DNA of 64,000 nt, taken from contig JBAZXC010000004.1 of the NCBI GenBank assembly GCA_041660065.1, positions 10,098-74,097 of the forward strand. The letters are read 5' to 3'. The notes beneath the pieces were generated by a model, which saw only the letters and a list, made by a program, of their open reading frames with translations, searched no databases and had not been told where the DNA came from. Of the stretch, positions 4,022 through 63,175 are shown in pieces (the stretch's first letter is position 1; each line of letters starts with the position of its first letter). This stretch comes from Parcubacteria group bacterium (GTDB lineage: Bacteria > Patescibacteriota > Minisyncoccia > Moranbacterales > GCA-2747515). The translations under genes and the position numbers were made by a program.

Positions 4022-4174
4022 ATTTCCCTCCAGTAATGAGATTTTCGGGTTTATGCCGTATCTACCACTACGGTTTTAAGGAACTGATACGGAAACCCCA
4101 CTCTAGCACAAAATAGCATCTCTGTCAAAGAAAATTTTTGTAGTATAATGAGGCTGTAACTTTAATATTTTTTT

Positions 4175-4978
4175 GTGAAAATTATTACATGGAATGTCAA
4201 CGGTTTGCGTGCTGTTGAGCGAAAAGGGGAATTGGAACATCTGATTGCTGTGCAACGACCGGACTTCTTGCTTTTACAAGAGATCAAAGGGAAGCGGGAG
4301 CAATTCAGTTCTTTTTTGACAGAGCATGAATCGTATGAGCAGTTTTATCACAGCGCAGAAAAACCCGGGTATGCGGGAACGGGTGTGTGGATGCATAAGA
4401 AATTTGCTGATGCATATACGACAAAGATCAATTTCAACACACATGTGCCAGATGCGCCAAATCATGACGAAGGGCGCATGTCTCATCTCACATTTACTCA
4501 TGGCAAAAAGATATATGATATTTTGTCGATCTATTTTCCCAATGGAGGAAAGAGTCCGCAGGCATGGAAGGAAAAATTGATCTTTTTTGATAAGGTGCTG
4601 GATTTTATGAATGATCTGCGTGCGCAGGGTCACAGGGTGATCGTGGGAGGAGATATGAATGTGGCGCATGAAGCGATCGATCTCGCGAGACCGAAAGAGA
4701 ATGATGGTCATATCGGCTTTCATCCGGATGAGCGTGCATGGATGGATCATGTGATAGCGGACAAGTGGGTGGATGTGTGGCGTGCAATCAATCCTAGTGT
4801 GACGGACGTCTATTCGTGGTGGGATTCATATACGCATGCACGGGACAGAAATGTGGGATGGCGGATCGATTATTTTTTCATCGATAAAAAGCAGTTAAAA
4901 AATGTACAAGAGATCGCATATCTCAACGAACAATACGGTTCGGATCATTGCCCGCTTCTGATGGACTTTAAAATGTAG
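4175..4978 (+). CDS. xth: exodeoxyribonuclease III (AP endonuclease)
   Basis: 267 aa starting MKIITWNVNGLRA, with an ExoIII/EEP-family fold signature across its length; TAGTATAAT -10 upstream. Confidence 0.85.
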   Translation: MKIITWNVNGLRAVERKGELEHLIAVQRPDFLLLQEIKGKREQFSSFLTEHESYEQFYHSAEKPGYAGTGVWMHKKFADAYTTKINFNTHVPDAPNHDEGRMSHLTFTHGKKIYDILSIYFPNGGKSPQAWKEKLIFFDKVLDFMNDLRAQGHRVIVGGDMNVAHEAIDLARPKENDGHIGFHPDERAWMDHVIADKWVDVWRAINPSVTDVYSWWDSYTHARDRNVGWRIDYFFIDKKQLKNVQEIAYLNEQYGSDHCPLLMDFKM

Positions 4979-4986
4979 CAATACAT

Positions 4987-5349
4987 GTCATCCTGAACTC
5001 GTTTCAGGATCTCATATCCTAAAAAATAAACATGAAACAATATTGTGTGTACATTTTAACAAATTCACGTAAGACAGTTTTATATATTGGTGTCACGAGT
5101 AATTTGCAAAAACGTGTACATGAGCATAAAAGTAAGCTTGTTGATGGTTTTACAAAAAAATATAATGTTGATAGATTGGTTTATTTTGAACAAACTGAAG
5201 ATGTTTTGAGTGCATTGAGAAGAGAAAAACAATTAAAAAATTGGCATAGGGGGTGGAAAAACAATTTGATATCGCAATTTAATCCAGATTGGAGTGATTT
5301 GACGAGTTCTATTATTTAGCTGAGATCCTGAAACGAGTTCAGGATGACA
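4987..5349. mobile_element. GIY-YIG nuclease cassette bounded by perfect 29-bp hairpin inverted repeats
   Basis: Left 4987-5015 TGTCATCCTGAACTCGTTTCAGGATCTCA; right 5321-5349 is its exact reverse complement; the cargo is the GIY-YIG ORF; a cargo-less copy of the repeat pair sits at 32850-32911. Confidence 0.55.
5032..5319 (+). CDS. GIY-YIG family nuclease (small, URI-domain only)
   Basis: 95 aa: YCVYILTNSRKTVLYIGVTSNLQKRVHEH ... KQLKNW matches the GIY-YIG motif set (GVY-YIG, R, E, N). Confidence 0.75.
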   Translation: MKQYCVYILTNSRKTVLYIGVTSNLQKRVHEHKSKLVDGFTKKYNVDRLVYFEQTEDVLSALRREKQLKNWHRGWKNNLISQFNPDWSDLTSSII

Positions 5350-5383
5350 ATAAGATTGCAATTATTTTTTTAGGTAGATATTT

Positions 5384-5989
5384 ATGGCAAAAAGACGGGT
5401 GCGACATCATGTGAATCCTCTGGCAGATATGACAGAACATAGTTTTGCCGGTTTTGATAATGATCGACCGATCATTATGGATATTGGTGCGGATCGTGGG
5501 GAATTCACGCAAAAACTCATAGAAAAATTCGGTGATACAAAGAATTTTATCGTCTGTGAAATTCGTAAACCGTTGGCGGAGAGATTGCGTAAAAAGTTTT
5601 CAGATCATGAAAATGTGGCAGTTTTTGACGGTGATATCGTGCGCAATTTTTTAAAGATCATCAAGCCATCTGTTGATAGAGGTGTAATAGTTGAGGAGGT
5701 CTATGTGAATTTTCCCGATCCGTGGTTCAAAGACCGGCACAAAAAACGTCGTGTGATCACGGAGAAATTCGTATTAAAAGTACAAGAATGGATGCCGGCA
5801 GGGACAAAGTGGATATTTCAAACGGATCAAAAGCAGTTATTTGAGGAAACGGTGGAGATGTTGCGTGGTATTGAAGGTGTCACTATTGAATTTTTCAATA
5901 ACACTCCGCATGATGTGACGACCAAGTGGGAAGAAGCAAAAATTGCGCAGAACAGTGTAATTTATCGCATGATGTTTTATATAAAATAA
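5384..5989 (+). CDS. trmB: tRNA (guanine46-N7)-methyltransferase
   Basis: 201 aa; SAM-binding IMDIGADRGEF and the TrmB hallmark FPDPWFKDRHKKRR. Confidence 0.8.
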   Translation: MAKRRVRHHVNPLADMTEHSFAGFDNDRPIIMDIGADRGEFTQKLIEKFGDTKNFIVCEIRKPLAERLRKKFSDHENVAVFDGDIVRNFLKIIKPSVDRGVIVEEVYVNFPDPWFKDRHKKRRVITEKFVLKVQEWMPAGTKWIFQTDQKQLFEETVEMLRGIEGVTIEFFNNTPHDVTTKWEEAKIAQNSVIYRMMFYIK

Positions 5990-18892: not shown

Positions 18893-19014
18893 AGTCTAAA
18901 AACCTCTGTCATTCCCGTGAAAACGGGAATCTAATAGCATCCACTTGTCGCATATAGAATACTTCTGGATTCCCGTTCCCCGATTTCTCGAGGACAAGCT
19001 TCACGGGAATGACA
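18893..19014. repeat. composite hairpin repeat (family B: GTCTAAAAA..TGTCATTCCCGTGAA..)
   Basis: A mini-copy at 18893-18931 plus a full copy at about 18940-19016 whose reverse complement matches 33945-33990 exactly over 46 bp. Confidence 0.7.
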
Positions 19015-32769: not shown

Positions 32770-32849
32770 AAGTTTTTTGTATTGTTATAACTGATTTAAT
32801 ATAAATATCATTTTTTCTTTTATATAACAATTATTTAAAAGAAAACTTC

Positions 32850-32911
32850 TGTCATCCTGAACTTGTTTCAGGATCTCACATCTCAGATGCTGAAACAAGT
32901 TCAGCATGACA
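32850..32911. repeat. solo (cargo-less) pair of family-A hairpin inverted repeats
   Basis: TGTCATCCTGAACTTGTTTCAGGATCTCA + CA + TCTCAGATGCTGAAACAAGTTCAGCATGACA; compare the TIRs flanking the GIY-YIG gene at 4987/5321. Confidence 0.7.
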
Positions 32912-32981
32912 TGGATATTAAATGAGATCTTGTGAGGGTATTATAGCCTTTTTGTGACATGTTTGATAGTATAAAAACATT

Positions 32982-33934: not shown

Positions 33935-34015
33935 GTCTAAAAATTCTTGTCATTCCCGTGAAGCTTGTCCTCGAGAAATCGGGGAACGGGAATTCATGAT
34001 TATTCTATATGCAAA
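33935..34015. repeat. family-B hairpin repeat copy
   Basis: GTCTAAAAATTCTTGTCATTCCCGTGAAGCTTGTCCTCGAGAAATCGGGGAACGGGAAT...TATTCTATATGC; the reverse complement of 18940-19016. Confidence 0.7.
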
Positions 34016-49443: not shown

Positions 49444-49528
49444 GGTGAGGTGGCCGAGTGGTTGAAGGCGCACGCTTGGAAAGCGTGTTAGGGGCAACTC
49501 TACGCAGGTTCGAATCCTGTCCTCACCG
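49444..49528 (+). tRNA. tRNA-Ser (anticodon GGA)
   Basis: Cloverleaf: acceptor GGTGAGG/CCTCACC, anticodon loop cTTGGAAa, long variable arm, T-loop GGTTCGAATCC; no encoded CCA. Confidence 0.8.
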
Positions 49529-49530
49529 CC

Positions 49531-49640
49531 CTGTACCGTACGGTACAGGGCTCCGCCAGAAATAAAAAACGGAGTCAAATATCGTACGAAAAAACAGTCC
49601 TACGCCATACGATACAGGACTGTTTTTGTATGGGGAAGAA
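49531..49640. repeat. cassette-boundary repeat, partial (central hairpin CCCTGTACCGTACGGTACAGGG + right arm)
   Basis: Lies immediately 3' of tRNA-Ser(GGA); shares the hairpin and a CTGTTTTTGTATGGGGAAGAATAGACGTTGAAATTTTTTTG arm with the repeats at 55931, 56861, 58450 and 62503. Confidence 0.6.
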
Positions 49641-49725
49641 TAGACGTTGAAATTTTTTTGCTGTGAATTATGATAGACAATTCACTTAAATATGCTACGA
49701 TGAGCTTACAAATTAATGGTTTTTC

Positions 49726-50715
49726 ATGTCTATGAAACCGATCATGCAGGTGAAAAATTTGACTAAGGAATTTGTCTTTCCGGTGAAACAACAGTCGGCA
49801 GGATGGTTCAAAAACTTCGTTGCACCACAAAAACGTACGGTTGTCGCTGTGGACGATGTGTCTTTTAGTGTTGGTGCGGGAGAGCGGATCGCTTTTATCG
49901 GTCCAAATGGCGCAGGGAAGTCCACGACGATCAAAATGCTTACCGGTATTTTGCATCCGACCAGCGGATCGATCGATGTGTTGGGTTTTGATCCGGCACG
50001 CGACCGCAAAAAATTGGCGTATCAGATCGGTACCGTCTTTGGACAGCGATCGCAACTTTTGCCCAATTTACCGCTTACGGACTCGTTGGAATTTTTTGGT
50101 GTGATGTATGATCTGACGGACAAACAGATTGCAGAGCGCATCGCAGAACTTGTGGAACTTTTTGGTCTTCAAAAATTTATGGACCAGCCTGTGCGCAAAT
50201 TGTCTCTCGGTCAGCGTATGCGCGGGGAAGTTGCGGCATCACTGATGCATCGACCGCGGATCATTCTCTTGGATGAGCCGACGATCGGATTGGATGTGGT
50301 TGCAAAGAAGCGATTGCGAGAATTATTGTTGCGCATCAATGCGGAGCAAGGCACGACGATCTTTTTGACATCGCATGATGTGGGAGATATCGAGCTCTTG
50401 TGTGATCGCACGATCGTGATCCATCATGGCGCGATCATCAAAGATTTGCCGACGAAGGAATTGGCGCATACATTCGTTTTTGAAAAATACATCGATCTCA
50501 TCCCGCAGGAAACCTTTCGCCATTTTCCCGCGTTGCCACAGGGCGTGCGATATCTCGTGGAGGACAAAGATAAAATTTCTATTGTTGTAGATATCAGTGT
50601 GATCAGTGTGACGCATGCGCTGACAAAAGTTCTGGCACTTTTTGATGTGCAGGATGTTGATGTTTATGATGCAGATCTGGAAACTGTGATCCGACATATT
50701 TATGAAAAAGCTTAG
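49726..50715 (+). CDS. ABC transporter ATP-binding protein
   Basis: 329 aa; Walker [10 protein letters not shown], signature LSLGQRMR, Walker [12 protein letters not shown]. Confidence 0.8.
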
Positions 50716-51502
50716 ACTCGCGCACAAGATCATCACAACGCTCATCAAAGATCAATGGTATTATCGCGGTCGTGTGATTGCGGATATGATGTTGATGTTT
50801 GTCCGATGCGGGGTGTTGCTTGTGTTGTATGCATATGTATTCCGTCTCAAAAACGGTGTGATCAACGACACGACGTTTGGAGTTGTGGCGTGGAGTATTT
50901 TTTTCTATTTTGCTTTTATCACATTGCGTTTGCGCGAGATCACACGCATGATCATGCAAGATGTGCGCAGTGGTACTGTGGAAACACTCTTTGCCAAACC
51001 AGTGTCATATATCTTTTACCGTGTGATGTGGCAATTGGGCAGCGGGATCAGTTCGTTTGTGATTGTGAGCGTGTGTGGTAGCGCACTACTGATCTGGTGG
51101 GTCGGCATACCGGAAACGATGACGATCGGTATTTTCCTCCCGACACTTTTTGCAGTTTTTTGTGGCGCGATCATATTGACGCTGACACTGTATGCGATCG
51201 TCGGATTTATGGCGTTTTGGATCGAAGATGTGAATCCGATCTTCTGGCTCGTGGATAAAATTGTCATGGTGTTGGGTGGCTCCTATTTGCCGGTCGCACT
51301 TTTCCCGCCTCTCCTGTACAAGGTTGCCGTGTGGAGTCCTTTTGGCGCAGCGAGTTTTATCACACACACAGTGAATGTCTCATGGCAAGAAAAATGGCCG
51401 ATGCTTGTCGGGATCCAAATAATGTGGATTGGCATTGGTCTCGTGGTGTTATATGTGATCAATCATTACGCGCACAAGAGAGTATCGATCAATGGCGGAT
51501 AA
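50702..51502 (+). CDS. ABC-2 family transporter permease
   Basis: 266 aa, 6 TM; overlaps the upstream ATPase gene by 14 nt. Confidence 0.65.
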
Positions 51503-51507
51503 AATAT

Positions 51508-52302
51508 ATGATGAATGACTTGCGATTTGCATTGTATGCGATCAAAAAAAATATTGCGAATAGTACGGAGTTGCGCACAAGTTTTGCGCTCACCGTTTTG
51601 GGTATGGCGATCAATAACGTGTCATTTCTCGTAATTTGGATTTTCTTCATACAGTCTGTGGGAGAGATCAACGGATGGCGTGCAATTGATATCCTCGCTC
51701 TGGATGGCTTTGTGGCACTGTCATATGGGATCACATTTTCGATCTTTGTCGGCATCAAATTATTACCACAATATGTCGCAGACGGTGTCTTTGACCGCTT
51801 CTTGCTCTCGCCAAAAAATGTACTTCTGCGTGTGGCAACATCGGCATTTCACGCCTCAGCCGTGGGTGATTTTGTATTTGGCGTGGCGTGCTTTGGTATC
51901 TATGCATGGGTTGTGGATATACATATCACACAATTGATGATCCTATTTCTCTTGACGATCAATGCGACGGTGATGTTTTTTGTCGTGAGTGTTTTGATCT
52001 ATTCTGCGAGTTTTTATTTTACTGATGCGTATTCTGTGACATATAGTCTCTTTGACCTCTTCATGACGCCGACACTTTTTCATGGAGGGTTATTTCATGG
52101 GACGATGCGTTTTATCTTTACATTCCTTATCCCGTCACTCGTGATCGGAGCATTGCCGACAGAAATTCTCGCATCCGTGTCAGTCGTACACATGCTTGTA
52201 TTGATGGGTATTACGGCTGTATGGTTTGCGGGAGCGATGTGGTTTTTTCGCCACTCGATCAAACGGTATGAAAGTGCCAATTTCATGACATTTGGGAGGT
52301 AA
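51508..52302 (+). CDS. ABC-2 family transporter permease (second subunit)
   Basis: In-frame ATGATG at 51508 just after the upstream stop, so the 51331 start in the ORF track is probably too long; 6 TM. Confidence 0.6.
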   Translation: MMNDLRFALYAIKKNIANSTELRTSFALTVLGMAINNVSFLVIWIFFIQSVGEINGWRAIDILALDGFVALSYGITFSIFVGIKLLPQYVADGVFDRFLLSPKNVLLRVATSAFHASAVGDFVFGVACFGIYAWVVDIHITQLMILFLLTINATVMFFVVSVLIYSASFYFTDAYSVTYSLFDLFMTPTLFHGGLFHGTMRFIFTFLIPSLVIGALPTEILASVSVVHMLVLMGITAVWFAGAMWFFRHSIKRYESANFMTFGR

Positions 52303-52602
52303 AAAGACAATTTTTCATTATTGTGCTACTATAGTCGGTATTATGAATATGCAAGATGACAAAGAAAAAAAGGAACAGGACCATCCTGATCATGATGAAT
52401 TTGGTGAGAGCATAAATGATTTGCGACCAGAAGAGGAAAAGCCCACGTATGCCGAGGGTGATGCAAAATCCAAAGAGCTCGTCAAAAAGATCACACGCAC
52501 AAGTTAGAAAAATAAGTGAATATTGGCCAGCCCAAGGCTGGTCCCTGCCTACCGGCAGGCGCCTCGGGAGGAAGCGGTTAACATGAACAAATAATTAAAT
52601 AT

Positions 52603-52694
52603 TGGAGAGGTGCCAGAGTGGTCGAATGGGACTGACTCGAAATCAGTTGTCTCGTTTTAACGGGACCCAGGGTTCGAATCCCTGCCTCTCCGCC
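52603..52694 (+). tRNA. tRNA-Ser (anticodon CGA)
   Basis: Acceptor GGAGAGG/CCTCTCC, anticodon loop aCTCGAAa, long variable arm, T-loop GGTTCGAATCC, encoded CCA. Confidence 0.75.
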
Positions 52695-52702
52695 AACAAG
52701 AA

Positions 52703-52750
52703 ATCTTATTATCATGCAAATGATAGTGGGATTTTTTGATTGGAGAAGGG
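52703..52750. repeat. about 46-bp direct repeat, copy 1 (AATCTTATTATCATGCAAATGATAGTGGGATTTTTTGATTGGAGAAGG)
   Basis: Near-identical to 63252-63297 (AATCCTATTATCATGTAAATGACAATGGGATTTTTTGATTGGAGATG); the two copies bracket about 10.5 kb of accessory genes next to tRNA-Ser(CGA). Confidence 0.6.
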
Positions 52751-52868
52751 AGGGATTCGAACATGGAAAGGGGTCGGGAAAACGATAGTTTCCCCGTGGT
52801 GGAAGTATTGAAACCGCAAGGTGTCAAAGAGCGAAGCGACGTGAGATTCCCTGCCTCTCCGCAAATAA
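52743..52868. other. tRNA-like fragment / att-type duplication of tRNA-Ser 3' end
   Basis: GGAGAAGGGAGGGATTCGAAC resembles the reverse complement of a tRNA T-arm and acceptor stem, and GAGATTCCCTGCCTCTCCGCA repeats the 3' end of tRNA-Ser(CGA); it does not fold as a complete canonical tRNA by eye. Confidence 0.4.
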
Positions 52869-53055
52869 TCTCTTATTTTTTATAATGCGAAATTTTCTGA
52901 GTGGAGTAGAGTGATTCGATCTGACGATGCTATAAGTGAAGTTTGTAAAATTGTAACTCGAAAAAATTGAAATAAAAATAAAAAACTCCCGAGATTCTCG
53001 GGAGGTTTATTTGTTTAATCTCCAGTCACTGTTTGATGACAATAATTATTGATTA

Positions 53056-54132
53056 TTATTCCAATGGAAGCATTTTTAGTGTCTGCAAAGATTTGCTTTT
53101 GGAAACGATACCAAGTTTTTTGAGAAACAGCATCAAGATTGAGCTTGTTAGAAAAATAAGAACAACTGGCGTTCGAACTGCTGCAAGCAAATCCCAAATG
53201 GCACTAAGAGTTCCTGATTTGCCATAGAAAGGCCAGCCGATGATGATGCACATTGCCATGAACATCCCTGCGATTTTACTGTTTTTCTCACTAAATCCGA
53301 TTTTTTCGGATATAAAATTAAGTCCAGAAACACCCGAATCAATTGAACTTACGGCAAGTGAAATCATTAGAATAAGAAACATGATTCCAAGATAGAGATT
53401 ATCGTTGAAATAAAATGCGACAATCATAACAAAAAACATGTAAATTGCAAACCATGCACATGCCCACATTCCAGTAGGAATCATTCTTTCTTCTTTGATT
53501 GCTGAGAGTTTTTGATGGTGGTGAGCGTGGGTGAGTGAGCCAATGATGATGCCTGAGAAATTGAATAGCGCAATCATCTTCCAGTCAACGCCTTTTGATA
53601 GGACGATATTATTCATAGTGCCGTCATTTGTTACAAATGCAGTTATTGCCATTGCAATGATAGCTGTTATCTGACCTATATAGGCTCCAATATCAGTTAT
53701 CATTAGAAATCGAAGTCCTCCAAATTTTACATAGAAAATTGTAATAGATGCAAATGCTACAATCAGCCATGTTGCTGTTTCTTTACTCACAAAGACATAT
53801 GTGGCAAATTTTTCATGACCTCCGGTAAGTGCTACCATCAATCCTTTCATATTTATGTTGATGGTGAGAAATGCTAGGAATGTAAAAAGTAGTAGCATCG
53901 GAATATAGTTCCCCCAGTTTTTACTGGAAGGAACATGTCGTCGAATAAATGCGGTGAGTGGGATAGCCAGACAATTGCCCACAATCCATGCAATTGCAGG
54001 AAGAAATCCTTCTGCATACATTTTGGACATTCCAACCACAATGGAAAAGCCCCAAGACCAATCAGCTGCCAGAGACATTCCTACACGCCAATTAGGAAAA
54101 TTTTCGATGTCATCAATATTCACGTTTCTCAT
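53056..54132 (-). CDS. polytopic membrane transporter (about 12 TM), family uncertain
   Basis: 358 aa, the only minus-strand gene in the accessory array; hydrophobic throughout; HAHHHQ loop. Confidence 0.55.
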   Translation of the reverse strand: MRNVNIDDIENFPNWRVGMSLAADWSWGFSIVVGMSKMYAEGFLPAIAWIVGNCLAIPLTAFIRRHVPSSKNWGNYIPMLLLFTFLAFLTININMKGLMVALTGGHEKFATYVFVSKETATWLIVAFASITIFYVKFGGLRFLMITDIGAYIGQITAIIAMAITAFVTNDGTMNNIVLSKGVDWKMIALFNFSGIIIGSLTHAHHHQKLSAIKEERMIPTGMWACAWFAIYMFFVMIVAFYFNDNLYLGIMFLILMISLAVSSIDSGVSGLNFISEKIGFSEKNSKIAGMFMAMCIIIGWPFYGKSGTLSAIWDLLAAVRTPVVLIFLTSSILMLFLKKLGIVSKSKSLQTLKMLPLE

Positions 54133-54389
54133 GATTCACTCCTTATCTTCTGAGGTTGGTTCAAATTTTAAAAGTACACTAAAATAAAATTAATGATCTC
54201 TATGCAAAGATCAGTTCAATATTGCATATTTTTGATAAATTGTCAAGAGAATAAGTTGTTGTGGATGTTGACAAAGTTTATTTATTATGATATTAATTAA
54301 CATTCGAGTTCCTTAACAAAAAGAGCTTGAGTTTTGATGGGGGAGGCACATTTCTATTCAGTGGATTTAAAAACTATTGAGCGCATAAA

Positions 54390-55748
54390 GTGAAGGAGGT
54401 TGATTTCATGAAAACATGTTTAGATTTTAAGAGAGCGTTGGTGGAGAGTGGCCTGATGGATTTTGCAGAGGAAACATCCTTGGCAGTTTGGTTGGGTGAC
54501 GGCATGAAGATGCTTCGAATTTTGGAGAGAAAGATTATAGAGCTTTTTGAACTGCAGGGTTATGAAGAGGGACGTTTCCCGCTCTTAGCTCACAGAAGTC
54601 ATTTCAACAAGCTTTGTATGGAAATTTGCAATTTTGATGGAGGTGTTTTTTGCATTGAAGGAAAAAGTGACTTACTTCTGCGACCCTCTGGTGAAATTGT
54701 GTTTTATCCTCTTTTTGCAAAGTGGTCAAAAAAAAGAGGTCTTCCTCTAAGGTTTTTTTCCATTGGACAAATGTTTCGTCAAGGATCTGCTCAAAAGATA
54801 TTTCGTCAGTGTGAGAATGATATGTTTGTAGAAGGACATGCCTCATTTAAAAATGCAGGAGAGGCGCATATTGAAGTAGATCGTCTTAATGATATTTTGA
54901 GGAGTTGGTTTTCCATTCTTTCACTTCCAGTCTTGATCGTGGACCGTCCAGGTGAAACAAATAAGCCTGTGGCAGAAAGGCACATTGGTTTTGATGGCAT
55001 TTTGCCAACGGGGGAGACCATTCTTCTTGGCGCCTCGTATTATCAAGGACAAATTTTTTCTCGTGTCTTTAATATTAAAAATCGAGACACTGCAGATTTT
55101 GCATATCAGGCGGAAGCAGGATTTTCATCCAGAGCGATCCTAGCATCTCTATGGGTGCATGCGGACAAAAAAGGATTGGTATTGCCGAGTAGTTTTGCTC
55201 CTATTCAAGTGGCAATCATTCCTAGCAGTAAAGATGCTGGCATGCTTTTGCAGGCAGAGAAAATAAAAAAAGATCTCAATGTGGCTGGAATTCGAGTAAG
55301 GATTCAAATCCCAGAACGAAATAAAAGAGTCTTTTATCAGAATTTGGAGATATCCGGCTATCCGGTAGTAATTCGATTGAATGAAACAGACACTTGTCAA
55401 GTTTACTATCGTTTTGATGATCGATGTGATAGTGATCCAAAAAATCTTTTATTGGAAGTGAGTGAATACTTGAAAAATTTGGACGGCAGAATTCTGAGAA
55501 AAGCAGTGGATGCTCATATTTCCAAGATGATTTTTGTTTGCGAAGATGCAAGAATAATCATTGATGTCCTTAATAGTCAAAAAGTAGCTCAGATATTCCT
55601 CTGTAGTGAATCTACCTGTTTGCATGGAGTTAAAACCAGCGTTGGTCGAGGTGAGATGATTGGTTGGGATTATTCTAGTCAAGAGCGGGGTGCGTGTATT
55701 CAATGCGGAAAGGAAGGTAGACGTGCATATTATGCTAGAAGAATCTAG
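54390..55748 (+). CDS. archaeal/eukaryote-type prolyl-tRNA synthetase homolog with substituted motif 2
   Basis: 452 aa colinear with class IIa ProRS: LLLRPSGE, motif-2 region GQMFRQGSAQKIFRQCENDMFVEGH (the canonical FRxE is altered to FRQG), motif-3-like GFSSR, anticodon-binding domain APIQVAIIPS, and a C-terminal Zn motif CIQCGKEGRRAYYARRI. Confidence 0.65.
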   Translation: MKEVDFMKTCLDFKRALVESGLMDFAEETSLAVWLGDGMKMLRILERKIIELFELQGYEEGRFPLLAHRSHFNKLCMEICNFDGGVFCIEGKSDLLLRPSGEIVFYPLFAKWSKKRGLPLRFFSIGQMFRQGSAQKIFRQCENDMFVEGHASFKNAGEAHIEVDRLNDILRSWFSILSLPVLIVDRPGETNKPVAERHIGFDGILPTGETILLGASYYQGQIFSRVFNIKNRDTADFAYQAEAGFSSRAILASLWVHADKKGLVLPSSFAPIQVAIIPSSKDAGMLLQAEKIKKDLNVAGIRVRIQIPERNKRVFYQNLEISGYPVVIRLNETDTCQVYYRFDDRCDSDPKNLLLEVSEYLKNLDGRILRKAVDAHISKMIFVCEDARIIIDVLNSQKVAQIFLCSESTCLHGVKTSVGRGEMIGWDYSSQERGACIQCGKEGRRAYYARRI

Positions 55749-55930
55749 ATAATAGAAATTGTTTAAATCAAAAAGCCGAGGATGAATTTCATCTGAGGCT
55801 TTTAAATTTTTTATGATGTTCTTTCGATATCCATTTTTGTTAGATATTAAGATGTTTTTTATGAAAGTCCTTCATAGTGAAAAATATTGTAGGAAAATTT
55901 CATCGTTGTTTTTGCAGGTTTTATTAATTA

Positions 55931-56037
55931 TTCATCAAAAACGTTCCAATATTGTCCCACACTCCCCGCCCTGTACCGTACGGTACAGGGCTGTTTTTGT
56001 ATAGTGGGGTATGGACGTGGAACTTTTTGTGATATTC
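55931..56037. repeat. cassette-boundary composite repeat (full copy)
   Basis: Left arm TTCATCAAAAACGTTCCAATATTGTCCCACACTCCCCG, hairpin CCCTGTACCGTACGGTACAGGG, right arm CTGTTTTTGTATAGTGGGGTATGGACGTGGAACTTTTTGTGATAT; the arms are imperfect inverted repeats of each other. Confidence 0.7.
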
Positions 56038-56059
56038 TTATTATGAAATTTAAAAATAT

Positions 56060-56854
56060 ATGATTATTGATACGCACGTACATATCTCACTTTTTGAGAA
56101 TAATGCAAAAAATTTAAAAGAAGCATTTGAAATTCTTTTAAATGATATGCAAAAATACAATATTGAACGAGCGATCATTGTTCCAGATAATATTGAAAAC
56201 AGTGATCAAATAGCAGATTTGGAAAAAGCGATTGAATTGATTGGAGACAAAAAGAATTTCTATTTTCTTGGCAGTCCGCAGATTATTCAACGTGGATCAA
56301 GTGAGTTAGAAAAATATCAAAAATTGATAAAAGAGAAAAAAATCGTTGGTCTCAAATTTTTTCCAGGTCATGATCCATATTATCCGACAGATGAAAGATG
56401 TGTGCCGTATTACAAATTATGCCAAGATCTTGAGGTGCCTGTGCTGTTTCACACTGGCGAAAATACAGGAAACAGTGAATGCGCACAGTGGAATGATCCA
56501 AAATATATTGTGGAGATCACAAAGGAATTTCCACGATTGAAAGTCATTATCACGCATTATTTTTGGCCACGAATGGACTATTGTTATGAATTGACCAAAA
56601 ACGTTCCAAATATCTATTTTGAAACTGCGGCTATGGCTGATGAGGAAGTTGTGGAAAAAAGTGGTGGCATTGGAAAAGTGAGAGAAATATTACATAAAAC
56701 TATCGTGGATAGACCTGCTAAGGTTATTTTTGGCACAGATTGGCCAATGTGCAAGATTGAAGAACATATCAATTTGATAAGATCACTGGGTCTTGAAAAG
56801 GAAATTGAGGAGAAGATATTTAGCAGTAATGCAGTCAAGATTTACAATATTTGA
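56060..56854 (+). CDS. amidohydrolase-2 family metal-dependent hydrolase (TIM barrel)
   Basis: 264 aa; IIDTHVHI at the N-terminus, and internal His and Asp ligands (FGTDWP). Confidence 0.7.
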   Translation: MIIDTHVHISLFENNAKNLKEAFEILLNDMQKYNIERAIIVPDNIENSDQIADLEKAIELIGDKKNFYFLGSPQIIQRGSSELEKYQKLIKEKKIVGLKFFPGHDPYYPTDERCVPYYKLCQDLEVPVLFHTGENTGNSECAQWNDPKYIVEITKEFPRLKVIITHYFWPRMDYCYELTKNVPNIYFETAAMADEEVVEKSGGIGKVREILHKTIVDRPAKVIFGTDWPMCKIEEHINLIRSLGLEKEIEEKIFSSNAVKIYNI

Positions 56855-56860
56855 TAATTT

Positions 56861-56966
56861 CTCATCAAAAACGTTCCAACATCGTCCCACACTCCCCGCC
56901 CTGTACCGTACGGTACAGGGCTGTTTTTGAATAAGGAGGTAGGGATGTGGAACTTTTTGTGATATG
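56861..56966. repeat. cassette-boundary composite repeat (full copy)
   Basis: CTCATCAAAAACGTTCCAACATCGTCCCACACTCCCCG + CCCTGTACCGTACGGTACAGGG + CTGTTTTTGAATAAGGAGGTAGGGATGTGGAACTTTTTGTGATATG. Confidence 0.7.
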
Positions 56967-57082
56967 ATAATCGTATAAATTGAAATCATTTATCTAGGAC
57001 CGTCCTAGTTATATATTTCGAGGTTTTTATTCCCTGTAGAGCGTGTATTGACACAAATACGCTCTACAGGTAAGATAGCAAT

Positions 57083-58054
57083 ATGAAAGCAACATTATCT
57101 AATTCCGATTATTTACGTAATTTTGACCGCTTTATCAGCAGTTTAGATTTTTCTGATCCTGATAATCTTCGTATTTATTCTCATCCAAAGTGGATCAATG
57201 TGCATCCTGCTGTTTTAGCTTTAATTGTAGAAATGGCGATGCGGGCAGGTAAGCAGAATGTTACGTTTGAAAATATTACAGCAACTTCCGGTTCGTATCT
57301 TGATCGTATGGGGCTTTTTGAATTCACACATCAAAAGTCACCATATACTATTAACAAGAAAGAAGAATCGGGAAGATTTATACCCGTCACGATTATCAAA
57401 AATTCTACCGAGCAGTCAAAATTTATTACTGACATGATTCCTCTTTTGCATTTACCTGCTGATAAAACGGATGCTATTAAATATACGATTGGGGAACTGC
57501 TTCGTAATGTATTGGAACACTCAGGAAGTACGCATGGAGCGATTGTTGCGGCTCAATACTATAAAAAATCAAACACAATTCGTATTGGTATTTGTGATGG
57601 CGGTATTGGTATTAAAAAGAGTCTGCAACACTATTGGGCTTCTCGGTCAAAGACAGATATAGCTGCAATCAAATGGGCAATGGTACCCGGTATTTCGGGG
57701 ACAACACGAAAAGAAGGCGGAACAGAAGATAATGCTGGTGCCGGATTATTTTTCATTAAATCTATCGCGCAAGTAGCACGTAACTATTTCATGATTTACA
57801 GTGGATCCGGTATTTATAAACTACTACTTCACGATAAGAGAATAGAGAAACCACGGCTCCATTCCGATCCGGATGACGATCGTCATTCTGAACGCGACGA
57901 CGCCCCTTATTTTCAAGGGACATTGGTGGCAATAGATTTATCCCTTGAAAATAAATCTGAATTTACCCAGCTTCTCTCTGCGATACGAGAAGTTTATGGC
58001 AAGGCGGTTAGGGATCGTAAGCGAAAGAAATATAAAGAACCAAAATTTATATGA
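57083..58054 (+). CDS. GHKL-type ATPase (HATPase_c-like) with N-terminal uncharacterised domain
   Basis: 323 aa; N-box ELLRNVLEHS and G1 box ICDGGIGI; the stop overlaps the next start (ATGA). Confidence 0.6.
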   Translation: MKATLSNSDYLRNFDRFISSLDFSDPDNLRIYSHPKWINVHPAVLALIVEMAMRAGKQNVTFENITATSGSYLDRMGLFEFTHQKSPYTINKKEESGRFIPVTIIKNSTEQSKFITDMIPLLHLPADKTDAIKYTIGELLRNVLEHSGSTHGAIVAAQYYKKSNTIRIGICDGGIGIKKSLQHYWASRSKTDIAAIKWAMVPGISGTTRKEGGTEDNAGAGLFFIKSIAQVARNYFMIYSGSGIYKLLLHDKRIEKPRLHSDPDDDRHSERDDAPYFQGTLVAIDLSLENKSEFTQLLSAIREVYGKAVRDRKRKKYKEPKFI

Positions 58055-58365
58055 GTAAAATAATTAAGATTAAGGATCTTGTCGGTGATTTTGCAGAAAA
58101 TAAAGACGTGGCAAAAGATTTACGTGTCACCGATATTATGCCGACCTTGGCAGATGGTCAGGAGGTCATATTGGATTTTTCTGGAGTTAGCGGTACAACT
58201 CAATCATTTATTCACGCCTTGATCTCTGAACCAATTCGGCGGTTTCGTGATGTAGCTTTGGAAAAGATACACTACAAAAATTGTTCTGATGTTGTAAAAG
58301 AAGTTATTAAAACGGTGTCTGAATATATGCAGGAAAGTCTTGATTCGGAAAATTATGAAAAATAA
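58051..58365 (+). CDS. STAS-like small protein (DUF4325-like partner of the GHKL ATPase)
   Basis: 104 aa; translationally coupled to the ATPase; ...EVILDFSGVSGTTQSFIHALI... resembles the STAS-like DUF4325. Confidence 0.45.
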   Translation: MSKIIKIKDLVGDFAENKDVAKDLRVTDIMPTLADGQEVILDFSGVSGTTQSFIHALISEPIRRFRDVALEKIHYKNCSDVVKEVIKTVSEYMQESLDSENYEK

Positions 58366-58449
58366 TAACGATAGATGCAATTTAGTTGTAGAAAATCCGC
58401 AAAGCACTGTGGATGCTGAATAATTGGGGTCAGGCACCTTTTATCCAGG

Positions 58450-58498
58450 GGCTGTTTTTGTATAGAGAGGTAGGGACGTGTGGAACTTTTTATGATAT
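58450..58498. repeat. cassette-boundary repeat, right arm only
   Basis: GGCTGTTTTTGTATAGAGAGGTAGGGACGTGTGGAACTTTTTATGATAT. Confidence 0.6.
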
Positions 58499-58524
58499 GC
58501 TGAAAGCATATTTTATATAAATTT

Positions 58525-59196
58525 ATGTCAGCAAATATCATAAAACACTTTATTGAAACAAGAGATTTTAATTACGGATCAGTGAAAGAAAAGCTCAATG
58601 AAATCATGGATGAGCATACAAAAAAGGCGTGTGTAATGTTAAATATCAACCTTGTTAATATCATTATATGGCCAAATAGTGATGCAGTGATACCGGAAAC
58701 AGGCGAAGGTGGCCAAGTATGGTCAAAAGAACTTGTTATGATTTATATTGATCCAAGTCGTTCTGTCGCAGAACTTCAAAAGATCATTGAAACACAAATT
58801 CCAGCAACAATCTATCACGAATTAAATCATATTGCTAGGGGAAATTTTTTAAGCAAAGAAGAACTTGGTTTCCATCATAATTTATCAAAAGCAGTAATCT
58901 CAGAGGGTATCGCGTCCTATTTTGCACATGAAAAATGGTCGCAAGCTCAAATGCCATGGACAAAATACTCGGAAACAGAAATACAAGATCTTTTGAGCAT
59001 TTATTTAAGCAGAGATATTTCTGATGATGACCAATATGACCATGAAAAATGGTTTTATGGCACGGGTGATCTCCCACGATGGATCGGCTATAAATTGGGA
59101 TATTATTTCGTTGAACGTTATAAGAAACAAAATCCAAATGTTTCATGGAGCGATATTATAAAACTAAAAGATCATGAGTTCATGAAAACTGTGTAA
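58525..59196 (+). CDS. putative Zn-dependent protease (HExxH; DUF2268-like)
   Basis: 223 aa; the HELNHIARG zinc-binding motif is in a soluble protein. Confidence 0.5.
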   Translation: MSANIIKHFIETRDFNYGSVKEKLNEIMDEHTKKACVMLNINLVNIIIWPNSDAVIPETGEGGQVWSKELVMIYIDPSRSVAELQKIIETQIPATIYHELNHIARGNFLSKEELGFHHNLSKAVISEGIASYFAHEKWSQAQMPWTKYSETEIQDLLSIYLSRDISDDDQYDHEKWFYGTGDLPRWIGYKLGYYFVERYKKQNPNVSWSDIIKLKDHEFMKTV

Positions 59197-59207
59197 ATCA
59201 TATTTTT

Positions 59208-59278
59208 TCATCAAAAAAGTTCCAACGTCGTCCCACTCCTTGTAAAGGAAATCACGCAATTTACTGCGTGGTTTTTTT
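59208..59278. repeat. cassette-boundary repeat, left arm + terminator hairpin
   Basis: TTCATCAAAAAAGTTCCAACGTCGTCCCACTCC, then CACGCAatttacTGCGTGGTTTTTTT. Confidence 0.6.
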
Positions 59279-59515
59279 AATTTAATTCTAATCTTGATTG
59301 CAGGTGACAATTCGCAAAAAGCCAAGTATGGTAGAAAATGGGATTTTCTGCCTAAAGTTGCGAAAACTTACTGAACGGGAGTATACTGTAAATAATTCGT
59401 AAACTTTATAATATGTCGAATATAAAAATAAATCATGGAAGAAAATTATCTAAATTGAAAGATGAAAATATGTGGAGTATAAAATTTTGAATTTATCATA
59501 ATTAATGAATCGCAT

Positions 59516-59926
59516 ATGAAACAGTATAGTATTTTTATAAGTCATTCATGGGCTTATGGCGAAAACTATAATAGGCTCATCAAAATGCTTAATAATGATC
59601 CCTATTTTCATTTTAAAGATTATTCTGTTCCAAAGCATGATCCCATTCATAATGCTCCAAATCAACTTCTTTTAAAGCAAGCGATTGCAAATCAAATAAG
59701 ATTTTGTGATGTCGTAATAATATTAGCGGGTGTTTATTCAACATATAGCAAGTGGATCAATATTGAAATTGACATTGCTAAGAATGGCTTTCAATATCCA
59801 AAATCTATTCTTGCAATTGAGCCTTGGGCTAGTGAAAAAACATCACAAATTGTCAAGAAAAATGCCGATAAAATAGTTAGGTGGCAAACATGTTCAATTG
59901 TTGATGCAATAAAAGGATTAGCCTAA
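59516..59926 (+). CDS. TIR-like domain protein (DUF1863/ThsB-like)
   Basis: 136 aa; YSIFISHSWAYGENY...CDVVIILAGVYSTYSKWINIEIDIA fits the bacterial TIR-like pattern (FIShS ... S.W...E); AT-rich (about 30% GC); 12 nt upstream of the next gene. Confidence 0.5.
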   Translation: MKQYSIFISHSWAYGENYNRLIKMLNNDPYFHFKDYSVPKHDPIHNAPNQLLLKQAIANQIRFCDVVIILAGVYSTYSKWINIEIDIAKNGFQYPKSILAIEPWASEKTSQIVKKNADKIVRWQTCSIVDAIKGLA

Positions 59927-59938
59927 ATCATAATCTTT

Positions 59939-60466
59939 ATGGATATTAAAAAATTGGAAGAAAAACTATTTGTTTCGAAGAATGAAAATTATGGAGATAA
60001 ATATATAGAACACTTATTGGAACAATATAAGGTTTATATTGACTCTGCAGAAAAAATAAGTGATCGTAGACAAAAATCAAATGAATTTTTTCTTGCTTTA
60101 AATAGTAGCTTGGTTGCATTATTGGGATATATACTTGCGAAAAATAGTGATTCAGAAATAGTAAGCTTGTTCATTCTATCTTCTATTTCAGGGATCGTAT
60201 TATGTTATTTTTGGTATAGAATTATTTATTCTTATAAATGTTTAAATAGTGGAAAATTCAAAGTTATTCACATGATTGAAAGACGATTACCACTAGCGCT
60301 TTATGACACAGAATGGGAAATATTGGAAAGAGGAAAAAACAAGAAAGTTTACTGGCCGTTCTCGCATATTGAGCTCATGGTCCCTTGGATATTTATTATT
60401 ATTTATATAACCATTTTATTTCTCAACCTATGTCCAAAAATAGGAGCGTTGATATGTGCAATGTAA
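59939..60466 (+). CDS. small 3-TM protein, SLATT-like candidate effector (paralog 1)
   Basis: 175 aa; an N-terminal amphipathic helix, two closely spaced TM helices (FFLALNSSLVALLGYIL / IVSLFILSSISGIVLCYFWY), a soluble loop and a C-terminal TM; overlaps the next gene by 11 nt. Confidence 0.5.
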   Translation: MDIKKLEEKLFVSKNENYGDKYIEHLLEQYKVYIDSAEKISDRRQKSNEFFLALNSSLVALLGYILAKNSDSEIVSLFILSSISGIVLCYFWYRIIYSYKCLNSGKFKVIHMIERRLPLALYDTEWEILERGKNKKVYWPFSHIELMVPWIFIIIYITILFLNLCPKIGALICAM

Positions 60467-61001
60467 ATGGAGGATAAATATGAAAAAAGAAAAAAACATA
60501 GAATTAATTTATTCTGAGGTAAAAGAGAGATTAAATAGGCAGATAGATTCCATAGATCAGGTGGCAGTTAAATTTAATTTTTTACTTGCGCTTAATAGTA
60601 TAATATTGGCTTCACTCTTACAATCTAACCTTTTAGGATCTCGAAAGGAATGTATTTCATGGATGATGTTTTTTGCAGTAGTGTGCTTTTTTTTATCAAT
60701 CCTATTTGACTTGAGAGGGCTAGTTATGCAAAAGTATAGACGAGATCCTGATCCACAAAAACTTTATGAAGGATATTTCAACAAATCAAAGCAATATACT
60801 CAAGAAGTCTTAATCATTAATTACGTGCATGCTTTCAATGAAAATGTGAAAAAATTACATCATGTTAACAAATTTTTTGCTTATTCAATATTTTCTTCCT
60901 CTATTGCTTTAATATTTGTTTTTATAAATTTAATTAATCCTAATTTAATTTTCATATGGAAAATGATAATAAAGATGATGTGTCAGATATGCCAAAGTTA
61001 G
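60456..61001 (+). CDS. small 3-TM protein, SLATT-like candidate effector (paralog 2)
   Basis: 181 aa; same architecture as the upstream gene; shared LALNS(I/S)(I/L)LAxLL motif. Confidence 0.5.
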   Translation: MQCKWRINMKKEKNIELIYSEVKERLNRQIDSIDQVAVKFNFLLALNSIILASLLQSNLLGSRKECISWMMFFAVVCFFLSILFDLRGLVMQKYRRDPDPQKLYEGYFNKSKQYTQEVLIINYVHAFNENVKKLHHVNKFFAYSIFSSSIALIFVFINLINPNLIFIWKMIIKMMCQICQS

Positions 61002-61127
61002 AAACTGAAGATGAAACGCCAAAATTTGATCCGAAACTAGTTAGCTATGAGGAAAAGGGTTATGATCCACATAGTAAAAATGTAAAGAATTTTTCGAAAA
61101 AGGACGACAGTGAATAGTTGTATATAA

Positions 61128-61598
61128 ATGACAATCCTAAAAAAATCATATTTGAAGAACAAGGATGAAGATCTGATTCATCTTCGAGCAATAAAATTTG
61201 GGATGAATTTTCCTAATGGTTTTATGTATGAACATTTTAAGAAGCGATACGAAACACATAGAGTGAATGATTGGAAAATTGTTGATGAATTTTTGCAAGA
61301 AGCATATAATAATAAAAATGGAACTTCTAACCGAATCACTCCATTTGTTTTGCTTGAGAGAGGGCCAAATGGGAACGCAGATACTTCAAAATATATATTG
61401 AGTTATGAGGCATATTTTAATTATTTGGCATATCGAAATGCAAAGAGGACTATTTGGATTGGTGTCGGAGCAATAATAGTTAGCGTAGTATTGTCTTTAT
61501 TAACTTTTATTGATAATACATATGAAGACAACAATAATAAAAAAGATGAAAGATATCACTATCAAAATATTTTCAGAGGCTCGCAAAATTGCAAATGA
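61128..61598 (+). CDS. hypothetical protein with C-terminal TM
   Basis: 156 aa; AT-rich; no motif. Confidence 0.45.
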   Translation: MTILKKSYLKNKDEDLIHLRAIKFGMNFPNGFMYEHFKKRYETHRVNDWKIVDEFLQEAYNNKNGTSNRITPFVLLERGPNGNADTSKYILSYEAYFNYLAYRNAKRTIWIGVGAIIVSVVLSLLTFIDNTYEDNNNKKDERYHYQNIFRGSQNCK

Positions 61599-61655
61599 AA
61601 AAATGAATCAAATATAGTGTTATTAATTAGAAATTTGACAGAAAATATCGTTTGT

Positions 61656-61745
61656 TATCAAAAAAGTTCCAACATCGTCCCACACTCCCCGCACAGATTT
61701 TAAGTCCAAGATAATGGGACTTTTTGATGGGGAAGTTTGTCATTT
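61656..61745. repeat. cassette-boundary composite repeat (variant)
   Basis: TATCAAAAAAGTTCCAACATCGTCCCACACTCCCCG, hairpin AAGTCCaagataatgGGACTT, then TTTTGATGGGGAAGTTTGTCAT. Confidence 0.65.
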
Positions 61746-61766
61746 TTAAACAAGGTCATATAATGA

Positions 61767-62465
61767 ATGCATAAACATAATAAGGCATGCATCATGGATA
61801 AGGCAATAGAGAAAAAACCAACTGCACTAGATGTTAAACTAAAGAAAAAACTTGACTTACTTCGACGTTATTGGTTTGCATACAAGCGAGCGCATCATGC
61901 CCTTTTAGGGGAAATTGAAGAAAACCAAATACTCTTACAGTTTCATGAGTGTAGAAAATTTAATACTTGGCAATTAAATGAGGCATTATATAGATACGCT
62001 GAATCTTCGATAAGTGCTCTATTTTGGTTGTTTCCAGATATGAAATACAAGGATTATCCTTTTGTACACAAATTCTTGAGGAAGTGGCGTAATGGAAATC
62101 AGCATGATGAACGAACGGATTTTTTTCTAAATGATGGAGGTTTTCAATATAATAATAAGAGGCATGATTTACCCTTAGGGTATAATGTGCTTCCCGTTTT
62201 CAATCTAAATAAAGAACTAAAAAAAGTTGTGAAATCACAGTTTGGTTCGGATAAAATTGCAACGGATGCAACAGTGGTGGAATTGGTTAAAAATCATCAT
62301 ATATTTATGGTTAAAAAATTTAATGAATATGAAGCAAATCTAAATAAAGAATTGCCAAAGAAATATTTGCAATCAATTGTGCAGGAACACATGACGATGT
62401 ATGGGGGAGTGCATGATGAGTTTGTTTCGGAAGATGATTTTTGGAAAGGAGAAATTAATAAATAA
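61767..62465 (+). CDS. hypothetical protein
   Basis: 232 aa, soluble and basic; no motif. Confidence 0.45.
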   Translation: MHKHNKACIMDKAIEKKPTALDVKLKKKLDLLRRYWFAYKRAHHALLGEIEENQILLQFHECRKFNTWQLNEALYRYAESSISALFWLFPDMKYKDYPFVHKFLRKWRNGNQHDERTDFFLNDGGFQYNNKRHDLPLGYNVLPVFNLNKELKKVVKSQFGSDKIATDATVVELVKNHHIFMVKKFNEYEANLNKELPKKYLQSIVQEHMTMYGGVHDEFVSEDDFWKGEINK

Positions 62466-62502
62466 TAATCATTTTACTTTTGATAAAATGATACTGTTTT
62501 AT

Positions 62503-62628
62503 TCATCAAAAAAGTTATAACATCATCCCACACTCTCCACCAGTTGCTTGCGAAGAAGATTTAGAACAGCTCGTTTTTACGGGCTGTTTTTGTATGGGGA
62601 GATAGAGATGTTGATTTTTTTGTGATAC
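62503..62628. repeat. cassette-boundary composite repeat (full copy, divergent hairpin)
   Basis: TTCATCAAAAAAGTTATAACATCATCCCACACTCTCC, variable hairpin region ...CAGCTCGTTTTTACGGGCTG, then TTTTTGTATGGGGAGATAGAGATGTTGATTTTTTTGTGATAC. Confidence 0.65.
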
Positions 62629-62665
62629 AGTTAAAATAATAGTTAATTTTATTAACGTAAACCAT

Positions 62666-63175
62666 ATGAAAAAAATAATATACTTTTTTATTGCTGGATT
62701 TATAATTGGACTGCTAATTTCTCCTGTAGCTGGAATGGCAAATAGCGTTACGAGGAACTTGATTTTGGGGATGGCTTCTGATGTAACTATTTTGGCAATG
62801 GCGGATAAAGTTAACGATAACAAAAATTCAGATGAGCAACTTAATACAAAGATATCGGATCTTCAATCTATTGTTGATAATCAGAAAACAGAACTTGCAA
62901 ATTGTCAGCAGCAAATAGATTTACAGAGTGCAAAAATAGAGGAATCAGATTTGAAAAACGAAGGAACGCAAATTAAAATAAATAATGAAGTCGAATGTAG
63001 AAAATTGTATTCAGATAATCAAGAATGTAACACGCCGTCTTTTAGGAGTGAATTAGATTTTAATAGAATGATTGAGTCATACAAAGAGGGAATGCCAGAT
63101 AAATGGAAATCTTATAGGGATGAAAAGCTTATTGTATTTAAAAAGTGTCAAGAAATTATTAAAGAATGCGGATAA
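62666..63175 (+). CDS. secreted/membrane-anchored coiled-coil protein, hypothetical
   Basis: 169 aa; signal anchor, Gln/Asn-rich coiled-coil, 4 Cys at the C-terminus. Confidence 0.45.
   Translation: MKKIIYFFIAGFIIGLLISPVAGMANSVTRNLILGMASDVTILAMADKVNDNKNSDEQLNTKISDLQSIVDNQKTELANCQQQIDLQSAKIEESDLKNEGTQIKINNEVECRKLYSDNQECNTPSFRSELDFNRMIESYKEGMPDKWKSYRDEKLIVFKKCQEIIKECG

Follow-up and report, generated by a model that had tools for sequence, protein, structure and literature searches.

A candidate Ssn-family GIY-YIG nuclease gene between outward-facing inverted hairpin repeats in a Parcubacteria-group bacterium

Introduction

The 95-aa open reading frame (ORF) described here very probably encodes a nuclease of the Ssn family, and the inverted 29-nt hairpin repeats on either side of it are the predicted recognition motif of that family, or SRM. 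Gene and hairpins make up a 364-bp SRM-ssn-SRM unit at 4986–5349 (+ strand) of the window, meaning the whole 64-kb stretch of Parcubacteria-group DNA that was analyzed; the unit is absent from the syntenic xth–trmB spacer of three related genomes. What distinguishes it from the published Ssn system is a matter of variant and detail: the system is of the same kind.

Proteins of the Ssn/SRM family are about 94 aa long and have GIY-YIG as their single domain (CDD cd10448; Chenal et al., Nat Commun 2025, PMC11893778), and those characterized have no activity on double-stranded DNA. SsnA of Neisseria meningitidis binds a hairpin repeat called NTS, CGTCATTCCCGCGMAVGCGGGAATCYRG, in single-stranded DNA only, and cuts one strand only, a few nucleotides 5′ of the repeat; the base most crucial for binding is the C immediately after the palindrome, and cleavage is governed by the 3 nt before it (PMC11893778). 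The ssnA gene is described as encoding 94 aa in an NTS-ssnA-NTS layout, and in most homologues SRM repeats both flank the gene and are scattered through the genome (PMC11893778). Transforming single-stranded DNA that enters the cell is restricted by the Neisseria enzyme when it contains the motif; the same paper suggests present or past mobility of NTS-ssnA-NTS as an element, and raises the possibility of an IS-like or REP/RAYT-like origin. Candidate-phyla bacteria are not mentioned in its main text (PMC11893778). A literature search returned no SsnA follow-up papers, and no occurrence, in the papers searched, of the hairpin 17-mer or of the string GTCATCCTGAA.

The gene and its flanking hairpins

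A first-pass annotation of this DNA had placed a GIY-YIG gene between perfect 29-bp inverted repeats. The inverted repeat is indeed perfect, with its left arm at 4986–5014, 1 nt before the 4987–5015 originally given: the 29-mer TGTCATCCTGAACTCGTTTCAGGATCTCA lies there on the + strand, and its exact reverse complement at 5321–5349. A one-mismatch copy is found at 32850–32878, and the number of copies expected by chance, from 100 shuffles, is zero. The left unit, of the CCTGAA type, consists of T-GTC, an 8-bp stem starting with AT (ATCCTGAA/TTCAGGAT, with covariation as described below), the loop CTCGT, and then C-TCA; the right unit has the same anatomy on the − strand, and both turn their GTC ends outward, away from the gene. 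The earlier description of each repeat as a hairpin in itself also applies: folded as single-stranded DNA, each arm forms the 8-bp stem and 5-nt loop at −6.1 kcal/mol (z = −3.8).

The 306 nt between the arms hold the 95-aa ORF (5032–5319, + strand) and no other, again as first reported. Its start codon lies 17 nt past the left arm, and the right arm begins 1 nt after its stop codon; the 64-kb window contains no further ssn copies. On the two sides are an xth-like gene of the Exo_endo_phos type (4175–4978) and trmB (5384–5989). These are the neighbors that had been named; the accompanying description of the site as a terminator position is not supported. Both hairpins at the locus come after stop codons, and a terminator scan found no terminator-like site in 4100–5500 and no T run behind either stem. 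A promoter scan of the locus found none from the left hairpin up to the start codon; ssn is probably transcribed by read-through from xth. Searches of Rfam with the whole window, and with the locus under a permissive threshold, gave nothing relevant, returning two tRNAs and one chance snoRNA match.

Family assignment of the protein

The window protein matches the Pfam GIY-YIG domain over residues 3–76 (E = 4e-17), with no other domain in its 95 aa, and its database record, on a contig of 98.5 kb, reads [quoted passage not shown]. It aligns without gaps over 93 residues to a 94-aa ORF of N. gonorrhoeae, at 48% identity (tblastn against a plasmid collection, E = 5e-21; pairwise BLASTP, E = 3e-31), and the two have in common both motif tyrosines, Arg28 and Glu65. 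The tblastn matches are two N. gonorrhoeae chromosomes filed as plasmids in that collection. The locus of the ORF in NZ_CP119140.1 (1880778–1884056) holds nine canonical NTS repeats in 3.3 kb; NZ_CP119140.1 itself is a 2.17-Mb N. gonorrhoeae chromosome filed as a plasmid in PLSDB. Since its length and its NTS context both match the published ssnA, the N. gonorrhoeae ORF is taken here as the presumed orthologue of the characterized N. meningitidis SsnA.

Other collections gave more distant resemblances. Among solved structures there were marginal matches to UvrC and SLX1 and no close one; NCBIfam gave weak, sub-threshold matches to UvrC-type models, and the NCBIfam, PADLOC and PHROGs matches were weak and partial, in the region of the GIY motif.

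Structure of the repeat

The published SRM pattern, HGTCWYN(0-2)YYVSBRHN(0-5)WNVSBRGN(0-2)RNCYNB, has no match in the window, and units were therefore identified with a structural finder that required GTCA[TC], a stem of 8 bp in which one mismatch was tolerated, and a loop of 3–8 nt. None of the four window units of the CCTGAA/GCTGAA type fits the published pattern; in a hand alignment, an NTS-like unit at 18907–18934 fails at its last base alone. Near close homologues of the protein the pattern matches 12 of 133 units, with any match at 9 of 71 loci.

An alignment of 83 distinct 29-nt units has compensatory changes in seven of the nine stem pairs. Pair 7–23, for example, is C-G (40 units), G-C (25) or T-A (17). 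Overall, 99.6% of stem cells are paired, a figure that is partly circular, the finder having required stem pairing. Positions 13 and 16, the first and fourth bases of the loop and outside the finder's rule, also covary (C-G in 65 units, T-A in 16), which implies that the loop would close to 2 nt, TT, with one bulged T. Loops of 2 nt are a feature of DNA mini-hairpins and are unusual for RNA.

Of 253 units, drawn from about 120 contig stretches, 244 have C directly behind the stem, a position likewise outside the finder's rule, and 227 have a pyrimidine in front of GTC; every unit has GTC and the stem, both having been demanded by the finder. The C after the stem and the GTC context agree with the published functional determinants.

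Conservation of the arrangement among homologues

Eighty metagenomic loci with close homologues of the protein (57–72% identity) were scored, 71 of which have at least 60 nt of flanking sequence on both sides. At 47 of these 71, a + unit lies upstream and a − unit downstream of the gene within 150 nt, and at 57 there is at least one correctly oriented unit within that distance; farther than 500 nt from the gene, the background is 0.08 units per kb. The closest upstream unit is a + unit in 43 of 49 cases and the closest downstream unit a − unit in 52 of 57, and by these counts the layout with GTC ends outward around the gene is strongly conserved.

The two stems of a pair generally differ. Upstream and downstream stems are unlike in 38 of 42 relative loci, the downstream one being mainly ATGCTGAA, and the commonest combination joins a left ATCCTGAA to a right ATGCTGAA, as in the window's gene-less pair (below). 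The identical arms around the window gene are thus the exception among relatives. Several homologues of about 60% identity are flanked by canonical NTS, TGTCATTCCCGCGAAAGCGGGAATCCAG, identical to the Neisseria NTS except for the first base, which ties the homologue clade to the published motif. A homologue of 76% identity, in a complete Moraniibacteriota genome, has the same two hairpins in an unrelated neighborhood, between murC and murB-operon genes.

Two variations on the basic unit were also observed. Many homologues are called as 102 aa, not 94–95 aa (e.g., L132, L134, L136); in these calls the stop codon before the downstream hairpin is missing, and the ORF reads into the hairpin. Nested units also occur (L006, 9790–10540, and the flanks of ssn homologues at L141, L164 and L176), which keep the outer GTCAT stem and the ATC behind it but have 25–55 nt, often an inner hairpin, in place of the loop; this suggests that the loops are sites of secondary insertion or expansion.

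A gene-less doublet and other units in the window

The first-pass annotation had also noted a pair of hairpins back to back at 32850–32911, with no gene between them, in a divergent intergenic region. The pair is as described: two units lie tail to tail between the genes for a cytidine deaminase (− strand) and FemAB (+ strand), and their orientation is outward, as it is around ssn. The left half (32850–32878, + strand) has the ATCCTGAA stem. The right half (32883–32911, − strand, where it reads TGTCATGCTGAACTTGTTTCAGCATCTGA) is a compensatory variant in which a C/G swap has changed the stem from ATCCTGAA/TTCAGGAT to ATGCTGAA/TTCAGCAT. The 62-nt doublet can also be folded as a single long hairpin (−22.8 kcal/mol), like REPINs.

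A second class of units, with stem ATTCCCGT, has three representatives in the window, one short and two of a long-loop form whose 26-nt loop folds as an inner hairpin. The short one (TGTCATTCCCGTGAAAACGGGAATCTAA, 18907–18934, + strand) is close to the Neisseria NTS and forms the left half of another outward-facing pair, with a long-loop unit (18965–19014, − strand) as its right half. The remaining long-loop unit (33948–33997, + strand) stands alone downstream of FemAB. No second ssn gene cognate to the NTS-like units was found in the window. Altogether the 64-kb window has seven genuine hairpin units, vs. about 0.9 in shuffled sequence.

A further repeat in the same DNA is unrelated to the SRM hairpins: an intergenic module of about 145 nt, of which at least five copies lie between small + strand genes in 49500–62700 (e.g., 55911–56055 and 56841–56985), near two tRNA-Ser genes. 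It is terminator-like in appearance, with a perfect palindrome, GCCCTGTACCGTACGGTACAGGGC, followed by TGTTTTTG, the palindrome being enclosed by an outer inverted repeat, GTTCCAACATCGTCC / GGACGTGGAAC.

Filled and empty sites

Comparison with related genomes brought out presence/absence polymorphism at both the xth–trmB and the deaminase–FemAB sites. One relative has a TrmB and a FemAB with 87% identity each to those of the window, and its synteny with the window is complete around both sites. Its xth–trmB spacer is 46 nt long and has neither gene nor hairpin; taking 4986–5349 out of the window leaves a spacer of 41 nt. The xth–trmB spacers of two more distant relatives, 92 and 66 nt, also have neither. 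The minimal discrete unit put forward in the first-pass annotation therefore stands, in that gene and hairpins are gained or lost together, as one; its suggested insertion into a pre-existing palindromic repeat is not supported, the empty xth–trmB site having no hairpin in any of the three genomes. Since all three outgroups are without the unit, it is simpler to assume a gain of the whole 364 bp in the window lineage; the relatives may instead have lost it.

The deaminase–FemAB spacer is 68 nt, without doublet, in the close relative, vs. 212 nt in the window. The extra window DNA, about 144 nt, exceeds the 62-nt doublet, and the element inserted there may have been larger than the doublet, or there may have been several events. 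AT-rich DNA on both sides of the doublet is also missing in the relative (window 32770–32981 compared with L217 9933–10000). The solo long-loop unit is absent from the relative's FemAB downstream region, and the readable 29.5 kb of that genome contain no hairpin units at all. Taken together, the polymorphism favors a unit that is, or recently was, mobile. For the gene-less pair, the earlier label of a MITE-like, cargo-less derivative is a fair one, given its outward orientation, its stem combination (the commonest of those that flank the gene) and its absence from the relative.

Dispersal without the gene

A species-representative genome collection has the exact hairpin, GTCATCCTGAA-N5-TTCAGGATC, in at least 120 contig stretches; the hosts among the matches listed include candidate-phyla bacteria, sphingomonads, Bacteroidota, Treponema, Gastranaerophilales, Elusimicrobiota and others. 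Among these listed matches, none of 135 hairpin copies is within 100 nt of an Ssn homologue, and 34% of units fall in ORF-like sequence, though such sequence makes up 91% of the DNA. Where adjacent units in the listed matches are no more than 150 nt apart, 60 of 90 pairs face outward (+ then −), with gaps of 5–119 nt, the other arrangements accounting for 12, 11 and 7. With outward doublets so frequent elsewhere, the gene-less pair in the window is one case of a common doublet. No target-site duplication was found at 62 doublets, inverted complementarity extending just 1 nt past GTCA.

The first-pass annotation had allowed that hairpins at many loci without the gene, and genes without the hairpin, would mean a coincidental association with a generic repeat. 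The first of these is what the collection shows, and the second is seldom seen: the hairpin is widespread at gene-less loci, and most homologue genes have at least one correctly oriented hairpin close by. The association is that of an enzyme with a dispersed recognition site rather than a coincidence.

Discussion

In the mechanism proposed here, the single-domain GIY-YIG enzyme of about 95 aa would bind a short hairpin in single-stranded DNA and cut a few nucleotides 5′ of it, its substrate being solely the strand that reads GTCAT...ATC. Oligonucleotide lengths in the published work (PMC11893778) place the SsnA cut 3 nt before the 28-nt NTS; by analogy, cuts in the window are predicted at about 4982^4983 (+ strand) and about 5352^5353 (− strand), in each case slightly beyond the edge of the unit. 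The ssn gene is housed within one outward-facing doublet, with other doublets and single units scattered in intergenic DNA. That the window protein cleaves single-stranded DNA is what we infer from its family membership; in doing so it may spread or maintain the repeats, or it may restrict incoming single-stranded DNA, as in Neisseria. Enzymes of the GIY-YIG superfamily hydrolyze DNA without a covalent intermediate, and the protein alone would be unable to rejoin strands, so that any spread of the unit would require replication or recombination functions of the host.

A more far-reaching possibility, which we hold tentatively and with rather more doubt than conviction, is that hairpin-ssn-hairpin is a selfish element, autonomous and able to move via single-stranded DNA both within a phylum and from one phylum to another, the gene-less doublets being its non-autonomous, MITE-like derivatives. 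The insertion polymorphism, the unrelated neighborhoods, the presence of an identical hairpin (20 specified bases) in many phyla, and the lack of target-site duplication are all compatible with it. If so, it would be a REPIN/RAYT-like system with a GIY-YIG hydrolase in place of the transposase. The resemblance to REP/REPIN sequences and their RAYTs (REP-associated tyrosine transposases) extends to a single gene with inverted copies of a short hairpin on both sides, and to intergenic dispersal, mostly as inverted doublets that can be folded into one long hairpin; the enzyme differs, a GIY-YIG hydrolase rather than an HUH/Y1 transposase.

That analogy could be carried further, to a genuine IS200/IS605- or REP/RAYT-type transposon, in which the protein itself excises and inserts the unit via single-stranded intermediates. 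Hairpin ends recognized in single-stranded DNA and the lack of target-site duplication (for the system described here, seen at doublets only) are both known from IS200/IS605 elements; insertion polymorphism and an abundance of non-autonomous doublets would be expected as well, and the comparison is drawn in the Ssn paper itself (PMC11893778). The window unit, however, has neither TnpA nor TnpB, nor an HUH/Y1 transposase of any kind: the sole family-matched ORF between its arms is the GIY-YIG gene. Its ends are exact inverted repeats that present the substrate on opposite strands, whereas those of IS200/IS605 are on one strand. Nor does GIY-YIG hydrolysis, lacking a covalent intermediate, offer a way to rejoin strands, and the enzyme is not known to have any strand-transfer chemistry. 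We see only a very slight chance that the protein acts as a transposase.

Another reading, the first of the options in the first-pass annotation, which spoke of a homing-type element, is that a free-standing GIY-YIG homing enzyme cuts empty hairpin pairs in double-stranded DNA and is copied into them by recombinational repair. The gene does lie between two halves that are found back to back elsewhere, the filled/empty pattern among relatives is homing-like, and GIY-YIG homing endonucleases such as I-TevI and the Seg proteins share its catalytic fold and its small, selfish-looking gene. Those enzymes, though, have a separate DNA-binding domain, make double-stranded cuts, and are found in phages and introns. 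The window protein is a bare domain of 95 aa with no DNA-binding module, it has no homologue in 50,697 phage records (a viral contig scan gave one homologue locus), and the characterized members of its family cut single-stranded DNA and are inactive on double-stranded DNA (PMC11893778). The PHROG matches to homing endonucleases, which might be cited in favor, are weak (E of 4e-4 or weaker) and cover about 35 residues in the 5′ part of the domain; and an enzyme of this type would have found no hairpin to cut at the empty xth–trmB site of the three relatives. Homing is, on this evidence, highly improbable.

If instead the hairpins were generic intergenic repeats, or served as terminators or in RNA stability, it would be by coincidence that they surround the gene. 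Their wide occurrence without the gene, their mainly intergenic location, and the placement of both gene-flanking copies after stop codons are what such a repeat would lead one to expect. It would not account for stems with no T run behind them at a locus with no terminator-like site, for the lack of an Rfam match, for an orientation that is fixed relative to the gene in relatives, for the conservation of an unpaired GTC and a trailing C across phyla, or for gene and hairpins coming and going jointly; the apparent 2-nt loop, too, is DNA-like rather than RNA-like. It is hard to give this explanation much credence. We return to an Ssn-type nuclease with its dispersed recognition motif as the preferred reading.

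Set beside the published Ssn/NTS system (PMC11893778), the window system has the same hairpins flanking the gene, with GTC, an 8-bp stem starting with AT, and then C, and the same dispersal of repeats in intergenic DNA; its protein has the same single domain, at nearly half identity to the Neisseria ORF, and its second class of units, TGTCATTCCCGTGAAAACGGGAATC, nearly equals the Neisseria consensus. It differs in its main stem and loop (CCTGAA/TTCAGG and CTYGT), which fail even the degenerate SRM pattern, in its host, a Parcubacteria-group (candidate-phyla) bacterium, and in the orientation of the gene-flanking units, outward in the window, whereas at the N. gonorrhoeae locus the GTCAT ends of the nearest repeats point toward the gene. 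Another parallel is offered by the dRS3 repeats and NIME mosaic elements of Neisseria, in which short intergenic segments lie between paired short hairpin repeats. Those are Neisseria-specific and were described before the nuclease was known, whereas the doublets described here, of 55–170 bp, are found in many phyla.

For a family described only in 2025, the window locus adds a member in a reduced-genome, candidate-phyla bacterium. New here are the strongly conserved outward orientation and the unlike left and right stems, and the clean comparison of filled and empty sites between close relatives bears on the suggested mobility of NTS-ssnA-NTS. The widespread CCTGAA-stem variant is missed by the published pattern, with the consequence that pattern-based surveys would undercount the family's repeats; it is a candidate, too, for a new specificity in single-stranded-DNA-cutting tools.
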